From assembly GCF_003018235.1 (NCBI RefSeq), contig NZ_CP027439.1: a stretch of DNA of 64,000 nucleotides, one strand, 5' to 3'. Positions within the stretch are counted from its first letter, which is position 1, and each line of letters begins with the position of its first letter. The notes under the pieces are model-generated. The model was given only the letters and a program-made list of their open reading frames with translations. It searched no databases and was not told the origin of the DNA. A program made the position numbers and the translations under genes. Positions 55,340-57,651 of this stretch are shown here, in pieces. This DNA comes from Escherichia coli. Lineage in GTDB: Bacteria; Pseudomonadota; Gammaproteobacteria; Enterobacterales; Enterobacteriaceae.

Positions 55340-55760
55340 TTTTCCCCTAGAACCAAAAAATGTAAATGTTGGGCAACTAGGAGGGGCAGGAAGAGCATCC
55401 GTGAGTACATTGCGGAGCAGAACCTGATAGCGGCCATTGAACGGGATGAACGGAAAACGAGCCTAGTCACCTGCACCATCGCGGCTTCGGGAAAACATAT
55501 ATTGTCAACGGACAGGAAGTGAAACTGCCAGAAGCTGCCAGACTACTCGGATATAGCGGCTTGTCCTCACTGCCTCACCGGATAAAAAAAGACAAAATCC
55601 CGCCCGGTGGTGATATAACTCACCTCATACCGACAAAAAAACATATGCCTGGTCGGGTAAGCCGTCCGCGCATATTTATTATTAATGGGCAGGAAGTATG
55701 ATCCTACCCACGAATAGTGGACACACTGTTAAGCGAGTAAAATCGTTAACAAGGTGAACC

Positions 55761-56060
55761 ATGACGCAAGCAAAATCTGTGAAGAAGACATCCCGTAATC
55801 AATATACCCCGGAGTTTCGCCAGCAGGCACTGGCGCTGGCTGAGCGCATCGGCGTGGCCAAAGCCGCCCGGGAGCTCGGCCTGCACGACTCTCAACTCTA
55901 CGCCTGGCGCAGTAAACAACGTCAGCAGGGCTCCACCTCTGAGCGTGAGCAGCAACAGGCAACAGAAATCGCCCGCCTCAAGCGCCAACTGGCCGAGCGG
56001 GATGAGGAACTGGCCATTCTCCAAAAGGCGGCCACCTACTTCGCCAGACGCTTGAAGTGA
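55761..56060 (+). CDS. IS3-family transposase OrfA (HTH)
   Basis: 99 aa, IS3-group OrfA pattern (YTPEFRQQALALAERIGVAKAARELGLHDSQLYAWRSKQ...LAILQKAATYFA). Confidence 0.85.
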   Translation: MTQAKSVKKTSRNQYTPEFRQQALALAERIGVAKAARELGLHDSQLYAWRSKQRQQGSTSEREQQQATEIARLKRQLAERDEELAILQKAATYFARRLK

Positions 56061-56098
56061 AGTACGGTTTTATACACCAACATTAGGCGGCGTTATCA

Positions 56099-56923
56099 GT
56101 GAAAAGCCTGGCCCGGGTACTGTGCGTCTCGCGCAGCGGCTGGTATGCGTGGCTGAAGCGCCGGCAATCCCCCTCGCCGCGGCAGATGCGCCGCCAGCAG
56201 TGTGATGAGCGGGTGGCGCAAGCTTTTATACAGGCAAAACAGCGCTATGGCGCGCCCCGTCTGACGCAGGAGTTGCGTGAGGCCGGCCATGGCTGGAACC
56301 GTAAAACGGTGGCGGCCAGTCTGCGACGTCAGGGATTATGGGCCAGAGCGGCGCGTAAGTTCAAAGCCACGACAAACAGCCGGCATAACCTGCCGGTGGC
56401 ACCGAACCTGTTGCAACAGGACTTCAGTGCTACGGGGCCGGACCAGAAGTACGTGGGCGACATAACGTATCTGTGGACAGAGGAAGGCTGGCTGTATCTG
56501 GCGGTGATTATCGACCTTTATTCGCGCCGGGTGGTGGGCTGGTCGATGTCGGAACGAATGACGGCGGAGCTGGCGTGCAATACGCTGAAAATGGCGCTGT
56601 GGCGGCGGAAGATGCCGCGCGGCGTGATAGTCCACACCGACAAGGGGAGCCAGTACTGTTCCCATGATTATCAGAATGTTATCAAAGACAATGGACTGAT
56701 ATGCAGTATGAGCGCGAAGGGCTGTTGCTACGATAACGCCTGTGCGGAAAGCTTCTTCCACAGCCTGAAAGTGGAGCTAATCCACGGAGAGAGGTTCAAC
56801 ACGCGGGAGGAGATGAAATCGGCGGTATTCGAGTATATCGAGATAGACTACAATCGGCACCGACGGCATAGTGCCAACGGCGGGCTAAGCCCTGTGCAAT
56901 TTGAGGAAAGCAACCTCGCTTAA
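56099..56923 (+). CDS. IS3-family transposase OrfB (DDE integrase domain)
   Basis: DDE integrase-core-like sequence; this frame has a stop at 56084..56086, after the orfA stop, so the usual -1 frameshift overlap is absent. Confidence 0.8.
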
Positions 56924-57651
56924 GGCTGTGTCCACCGTTGCTGGGCAAGATCAAGAAACTTTATAAAAAAGGGAAGGAGTAAGACCTTCCCAACAAGAGG
57001 TTAGAACCACAAACAGATCGCATATAAGAACTATATGCATATATCATGCTATCGATGAATGAGTATGATGTCATCACTTTTGTTAAAAAGTGAGAGAATA
57101 AATAACATAAAACTCTTATTTATTCTTGATAGGGGATAATCCCTTTAGTGGATATTTATGGAGTTTGAATGTTGAAAAGTGCACATCAGGAACTTACAGA
57201 ACTGTATTAATGTCGTGTATAATCATTGATAATTATAGAAAATCAATTTATGGCTTTATAAAAATAAAAAACAGAACCCACCATAAAAATGGGTTTTGTA
57301 ATACTATGATTGGTTATGGGAAGAATATTATAATATTCTCTTTTCAGAGGTTATCACCATATAGATCAAGTATCAATATGCGGCATAATAATAATGGGAG
57401 ATAATTAACATTACACCCTAATTTAATCAAATTGATATAATGTTTTTCCTAATTTTTGTATCAATTGTGAGTTATATATTGTATAACAAATCAATATAGA
57501 TAAGCTTTTCAACATGCTTTATGTAAACATATTTCCCACTGTCATATATGTATATGTTTTTTTATAATCATTCAAAAAAGAGAATCAATAAAGGTGCCAG
57601 ATAAAGCACCTGAAATGATGAATAAATCTAGATGATAAGGCGTCGCAGATA

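Follow-up and report, generated by a model that had tools for sequence, protein, structure and literature searches.

The insertion sequence that separates two dissimilar segments of the window (the whole 64,000-nucleotide stretch of Escherichia coli DNA analysed here) is most probably an amber-inactivated fossil of the IS3 group, vertically inherited at the seam of two plasmid segments, a reading to which we assign a probability of about 0.88. The window is an F-type conjugative plasmid, with tra genes at about 1–44 kb and an IncFII repA at about 45–47 kb. The element (Table 1) belongs to the IS3 family, IS3 group, its orfB frame is closed by a nonsense mutation which is real and present in the plasmid lineage, its location is fixed at one site across an Escherichia F-type plasmid family, and the DNA segments on either side of it are non-contiguous in ancestry.

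Membership of the IS3 family, proposed in an earlier note made from the letters of the window, was confirmed by profile matches: conceptual OrfB scored 356 bits against the NCBIfam model NF033516 'IS3 family transposase' (cut-off 160), and the HTH in OrfA and DDE/rve catalytic core in OrfB by which the family is recognised were both detected, the latter in the orfB remnant (PF00665, E=2e-28, with PF13333 and PF13276). The terminal inverted repeats described there are likewise present, they are 39 nt long at both ends, imperfect and 77% complementary, the element reading TGATCC...AGATCA with the imperfect 5'-TG...CA-3' ends of the family and termini that coincide with those of sister copies. 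The left repeat carries one lineage-specific substitution (G>A at 55725). The G+C content of the element is 57.5%, against 43.5% and 33.4% in its flanks. Its start had been placed at 55480, which was wrong, as the IS begins at 55699 and the 219 bp at 55480–55698 are flanking DNA. In a scan of species-representative genomes, the terminal 26 nt of the right inverted repeat were found exactly in Brenneria, Affinibrenneria and Halomonadaceae genomes, with exact matches also in Halomonas, Billgrantia, Vreelandella and Thiohalocapsa (L022–L045); several of the Halomonas loci were only ~70% identical to the window IS where BLAST aligned, the tip of the inverted repeat being far more conserved across IS3-group species than the remainder of the element.

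Table 1 Features in and around the insertion sequence, and related copies used for comparison.
Feature	Position	Strand	Details and basis
Internal fragment of yacB (RelE/ParE-type) toxin gene	55384-55454	+	Residues 13-34; homology
Orphan tandem-repeat ORF, truncated by the IS	55497-55698	+	Units of ~177 bp/~59 aa
IS3-family (IS3-group) insertion sequence, defective copy	55699-56953	+	1,255 bp; inverted repeats and sister-copy alignment
Left terminal inverted repeat	55699-55737	+	Starts 5'-TG; repeat detection
orfA, intact	55761-56060	+	99 aa; HTH_Tnp_1, PF01527, E=1.9e-11
A_AAG -1 slippery tetramer	56024-56027	+	Part of CCAAAAGG; the orfA and orfB frames overlap here, at 56006-56060
Predicted helix GCCUGA/UCAGGC	56050-56088 (arms 56050-56055 and 56083-56088)	+	Downstream of slippery site; RNAalifold consensus
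TAG amber codon in the orfB frame	56084-56086	+	CAG>TAG (C>T at 56084); alignment with relatives
Remaining orfB open frame	56099-56923	+	274 aa from GTG at 56099; HTH_21 and rve DDE integrase core
Right terminal inverted repeat	56915-56953	+	Ends CA-3'; repeat detection
Lonsdalea quercina copy	L012:1439-2693		99.2% DNA identity, 10 mismatches, no gaps; CAG; no 3-bp duplication
JGI metagenome copy	L017		98.2% DNA identity; CAG; flanks TTT/TTC
Logan copy	L005		95.4% DNA identity; CAG; no 3-bp duplication
Yersinia pseudotuberculosis copy	L004		95.1% DNA identity; CAG; flanks CGC/CGC
Affinibrenneria salicis copy	L038		94% DNA identity, gapped alignment; flanks GTC/GTC

Reference copies were aligned in place of a comparison with ISfinder. 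A search with the conceptual OrfAB led to a 90%-identity cluster of 54 proteins. This cluster includes 387-aa 'IS3 family transposases' from Yersinia pseudotuberculosis, Lonsdalea, Brenneria and Rouxiella, and also holds a protein identical to the window OrfA, which one source names a Gibbsiella quercinecans transposase. The closest intact copy is that of Lonsdalea quercina (OrfAB WP_410424935.1). The Logan copy (L005:1040-2294, SRR23109593) keeps the orfB CAG but has a nonsense change of its own in orfA, where the Trp codon of ..LYAWRSK.. is changed (TGG>TGA); its inactivation is independent of that of the window copy.

In the window, as in intact copies, no stop interrupts the orfB (-1) frame from 56006 until it has passed both the A_AAG tetramer and the orfA TGA (56058–56060). 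A_AA.G is the frameshift motif of IS3 (PMC4066793), and CCAAAAGG is invariant in 9/9 aligned copies, E. coli IS3 included. Overlapping 0/-1 frames with a slippery motif, characteristic of the IS3 family, are present here, and the description of the element as lacking an orfA/orfB overlap was mistaken: overlap and slippery site are intact, and the defect is one nonsense codon. That this stop blocks a full-length OrfAB, as had also been claimed, holds true, and the capacity for the full-length fusion found in the family is absent. The orfB frame reads ...KYGFIHQH*, the TAG lying eight codons past the orfA TGA, after which the frame reopens; the C>T change at 56084 therefore ends the -1 frameshift product after 108 aa (89 OrfA residues plus GGHLLRQTLEVKYGFIHQH), without the catalytic DDE domain.

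The codon at 56084–56086 is CAG in L004, L005, L012, L016 and L017 and in four more distant IS3-group copies, and Gln occupies the position of the stop in all full-length homologs (387 aa). As CAG is found in the nearest intact copy and in all relatives examined, the TAG is a lineage-specific C>T nonsense mutation, one of seven private substitutions in the window lineage. Another of the seven, an R>K change (56643), alters the OrfB residue adjoining the second catalytic Asp, with HTDKG in the window versus H(T/S)DRG in all homologs. From these sequence features the copy is probably transposition-defective.

The two C>T changes private to the window (56052 and 56084) both fall in the predicted helix downstream of the slippery site, each converting a G-C pair to G.U. 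The pairs of this helix are unchanged in eight comparators, the window alone having two G.U pairs, and in the nine-sequence alignment extending to E. coli IS3 no sequence other than the window departs from CCAAAAGG, CGCCTGA or TCAGGC. The position of the helix fits the IS3 pseudoknot, because the 3' half of the latter is located after the orfA UGA (PMC4066793). Single-sequence RNA folds of the frameshift region were no better than shuffles (z +0.9 to -1.2), and since the alignment fold shows no covariation we can only infer the helix and the consequences of both C>T changes, which on this model may weaken a predicted frameshift stimulator.

An error of sequencing or assembly in a truly intact element, as an explanation of the TAG, draws on the CAG present in all reference-like copies, and the earlier note had taken an intact overlap in reference copies to mean such an error in the window. 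The references do carry CAG, but the error does not follow: the same element, flanks, junctions and TAG were found in seven loci (L006–L009 and L013–L015) from five independent samples in Logan and NCBI (SRR21083355, SRR27184376, SRR14154173, SRR33841299 and GCA_029782595.1), and six further private substitutions accompany it in the lineage. Because of this recurrence in seven loci from five independent samples, the TAG is no sequencing error, and the chance that it is one is practically negligible. Mobility of the amber copy is a separate matter; it could be moved in trans by a related transposase, or in cis by suppression or read-through of the TAG. Both inverted repeats, orfA and the slippery site are intact, and the lost codon specified Gln, the residue that a supE-type amber suppressor inserts, which would restore the wild-type protein at this position. 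The distribution of the element, however, makes continued mobility improbable. Index entries for the OrfB remnant, exact over its 274 aa, occur in 43 collection blocks, and the contigs read (23/23) share one gene neighbourhood, with UbiD, LysR, YhbP, the IS, a GerE/LuxR-type gene, an OmpA-family gene and a YadA-like gene. PLSDB and 5,426 complete E. coli genomes contain a single other copy, in pSCU-111-1 and at the same site, no second copy occurs within the window at ≤3 mismatches to the left inverted repeat, and the scan of species-representative genomes with the right inverted repeat returned no Escherichia copy. Identical neighbours and the lack of a copy elsewhere mark the element as an immobile fossil passed on by vertical descent. 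With regard to the copy-out/paste-in transposition of the IS3 family, which proceeds through a circular intermediate, the indirect observation on this allele is that all its copies occupy one site. The private changes, which would weaken the predicted stimulator and which alter the residue by the second catalytic Asp, also count against mobility, and cross-mobilisation by E. coli IS3 is doubtful because the two elements share only 66% protein identity.

The flanking triplets of the IS are GTA on the left versus AGA on the right, and the earlier note was correct that there is no 3-bp target duplication. By itself this absence is weak evidence, and it concerns the history of the window copy, not its family membership: among eight comparison copies with flanks read in other contexts (L004, L005, L012/L016, L017, L018, L019, L020 and L021) a perfect 3-bp duplication was present in two (L004 and L019), and a ninth copy from a later genome scan (L038) also has one. 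A simple insertion at the window site, with no rearrangement and a duplication later erased by point mutation, would agree with the several sister copies that likewise lack a perfect duplication, yet it is highly improbable given the DNA found on either side in other plasmids. In the IS-free E. albertii plasmid pEA36_2 homology to the window stops exactly at 55698, and beyond it (...GGAAGTA followed by ACAATAAGCC...) lie the next repeat unit and the remainder of the repeat ORF, then a hypothetical gene and ccdAB, not the right flank. Homology to E. coli p100 starts exactly at 56954, where p100 enters from a PAPS-reductase/ParB module (...TTTCTGAT followed by AGAAAC) unrelated to the left flank of the window. 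The right flank is present in just two PLSDB plasmids, with the left flank abutting it in neither, and when the joined flanks were used as a query for the empty site in PLSDB and among the complete E. coli genomes, none was found, since no record matched the query along both of its halves. As no record joins the flanks directly, the IS lies at a joint made by recombination or deletion, and the suspicion of a rearrangement at the IS site was well founded, the left and right flanks being of separate ancestry; the target duplication is missing because they come from different ancestral contexts.

The DNA left of the IS, previously described as a decayed, regulator-like and frameshifted remnant, consists of two unrelated things, a yacB fragment and an orphan repeat ORF without a DNA-binding family match. 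Neither Pfam nor NCBIfam gave a family for the repeat ORF at E≤0.1, a search of 5.8 billion proteins found no homolog, and the label 'regulator-like' is unsupported. Its units follow the pattern 'I(V/I)NGQEV..AARLLGY..IP.G.DI.HL', and the segment in the window comprises the first unit and the initial 25 bp of the second, the IS having inserted just past the I-V/I-N-G-Q-E-V motif of unit 2, where the IS bases TGA provide the stop codon of the ORF. A 14-nt near-repeat at the IS junction had been read as a hint of rearrangement; the near-repeat is real (55497–55520 versus 55674–55697, 24 nt, 79% identical, spacing 177), but it is no rearrangement scar, since successive ~177-bp units, which run uninterrupted in pEA36_2, each begin with it. 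There the intact repeat ORF encodes 103 aa (L002:14447-14758, within L002:14430-14758). A homolog in E. albertii p2RM9974 (L010:2480-2812; E=3e-14, 44–48% identical) lies in a single reading frame, upstream of which there is one in-frame stop. Tblastn with the repeat ORF matched only 13 Escherichia plasmids, and the match was unannotated in all of them.

The yacB fragment (71 bp) shares 91–93% DNA identity with yacB of >1,000 F-type plasmids and 18/22 amino acids (82%, E=1e-10) with the YacB of pEA36_2; with only 71 bp it is not a functional gene. The upstream frame-2 peptide was considered as the N-terminus of the p2RM9974 homolog, with which it has no homology, the peptide being YacB. The 5' end of yacB (~12 codons) follows yacA at 47991–48027, so a 7.4-kb cargo lies between the two yacB pieces, and this block looks like an insertion into yacB. 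Its genes (at ~49400–55340, annotated via L001/L002) encode a tannase/feruloyl esterase, Idi, a DUF554 protein, UbiX, UbiD, a LysR regulator and YhbP, for which catabolism of tannins and phenolic acids is a plausible role. The cargo is common to pEA36_2, which is from a bird, and E. coli pSCU-111-1; pEA36_2 carries an intact yacB plus an extra yacB fragment. The 10-mer GGGCAGGAAG occurs exactly at 55384–55393, the start of the yacB fragment, and at 55687–55696, 3 bp before the IS, a double occurrence which may be chance or microhomology used in patchwork assembly. On the other side of the IS, the region 56954–64000 is strongly AT-rich, at 33% GC. A short gene for a GerE/LuxR-type regulator lies at 57652–58203, and it is followed by genes for an OmpA-family protein, a YadA-like adhesin and an S6-peptidase (SPATE-type autotransporter). 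Within PLSDB this adhesin/autotransporter module is found only in p100 and pSCU-111-1.

Taken together, the following history would account for the fossil. Plant-associated Enterobacterales (Lonsdalea, Brenneria, Affinibrenneria, Rouxiella and Gibbsiella) and Yersinia pseudotuberculosis are the hosts of its intact relatives, in which a -1 slip at A_AAG during translation of orfA yields the 387-aa OrfAB with its HTH and DDE domains. In the plasmid lineage the C>T change turned the Gln codon into TAG and cut the fusion to 108 aa, leaving a copy that retains both ends and the capacity to encode OrfA, but is unable to produce a transposase of its own. This copy is inherited vertically at one fixed site in Escherichia F-type plasmids, and in pSCU-111-1 it has decayed further by a 317-bp deletion. 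At the joint itself, the left end interrupts a repeat ORF that is intact in pEA36_2 and the right end abuts the adhesin/autotransporter module. The most likely route to this arrangement is recombination between two IS copies, the first inserted at GTA of the repeat ORF and the second at AGA ahead of the adhesin module, which left a single copy; alternatively, a single copy may have promoted an adjacent deletion and remained at the joint. The reciprocal junctions of the two-copy model, IS right end plus GTAACAATAAGCC and TTTCTGATAGA plus IS left end, had 0 matches each in JGI metagenomes, and none were found in the plasmid or E. coli collections either, which is why we infer the recombination route from the flanks.

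A broader interpretation is that an IS of plant-associated Enterobacterales assembled the plasmid mosaic of phenolic/tannin cargo and adhesin/autotransporter module through recent gene flow, and was inactivated afterwards. The 99.2% identity to the copy of the oak pathogen Lonsdalea quercina and the position of the IS exactly at the joint are the grounds for this interpretation, which we regard as tentative and rather doubtful. In a weaker variant, the amber copy would persist as a regulator that supplies OrfA alone, or would be active on condition that its host carries a suppressor.

It is common for F-type plasmids to carry defective IS copies where their mosaic segments meet, and the fossil described here is a known kind of object. 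For annotation, the element is best entered as a pseudogenised copy of the IS3 group with an amber codon at 56084 and not as an architectural variant, and the DNA to its left is best divided into the yacB fragment and the truncated repeat ORF, an orphan. The junctions and the fixed TAG allele are handy for tracing the lineage of this plasmid family. That the copies in Lonsdalea and Brenneria, which are tree-pathogenic Pectobacteriaceae, are nearly identical to the window IS hints at exchange between plant-associated and enteric Enterobacterales. On Escherichia F plasmids the IS marks a seam between phenolic-catabolism cargo and a module of virulence type.

A known counterpart is the insertion in pSCU-111-1 (E. 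coli, NZ_CP051728.1), where site and flanks are identical to those of the window (99.8% identity), with UbiD, LysR and YhbP on the left and the OmpA-family and YadA-like genes on the right; it is already annotated there, under the PGAP label 'IS3 family transposase'. It differs by its internal deletion (window 55841–56157; L001:4135-4142), which takes out the 3' end of orfA, the slippery site and the TAG, and which shows continued in-situ decay of the IS copy. The Lonsdalea quercina element and the copies in Brenneria, Affinibrenneria, Rouxiella, Gibbsiella and Y. pseudotuberculosis share 94–99.2% DNA identity with the window. Lonsdalea-type copies, which sources name only 'IS3 family transposase', have the same 1,255 bp without indels, the same inverted repeats, orfA stop, A_AAG site and orfB stop, but have CAG for TAG, the seven private substitutions belonging to the window lineage. 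A 3-bp target duplication is present in Y. pseudotuberculosis (CGC) and Affinibrenneria (GTC), whereas the Lonsdalea copy, like the window, has none. E. coli IS3 is the type element, in which frameshifting occurs at A_AAG with a downstream pseudoknot (PMC4066793). The window element resembles it in architecture, in the 387-aa OrfAB, in the TG...CA ends, in the CCAAAAGG site and in the GCCUGA/UCAGGC segments, but just 66% of the protein sequence is identical, and related Klebsiella plasmid copies share about 70% DNA identity with the window element. The window element is an IS species other than E. coli IS3, within the IS3 group.
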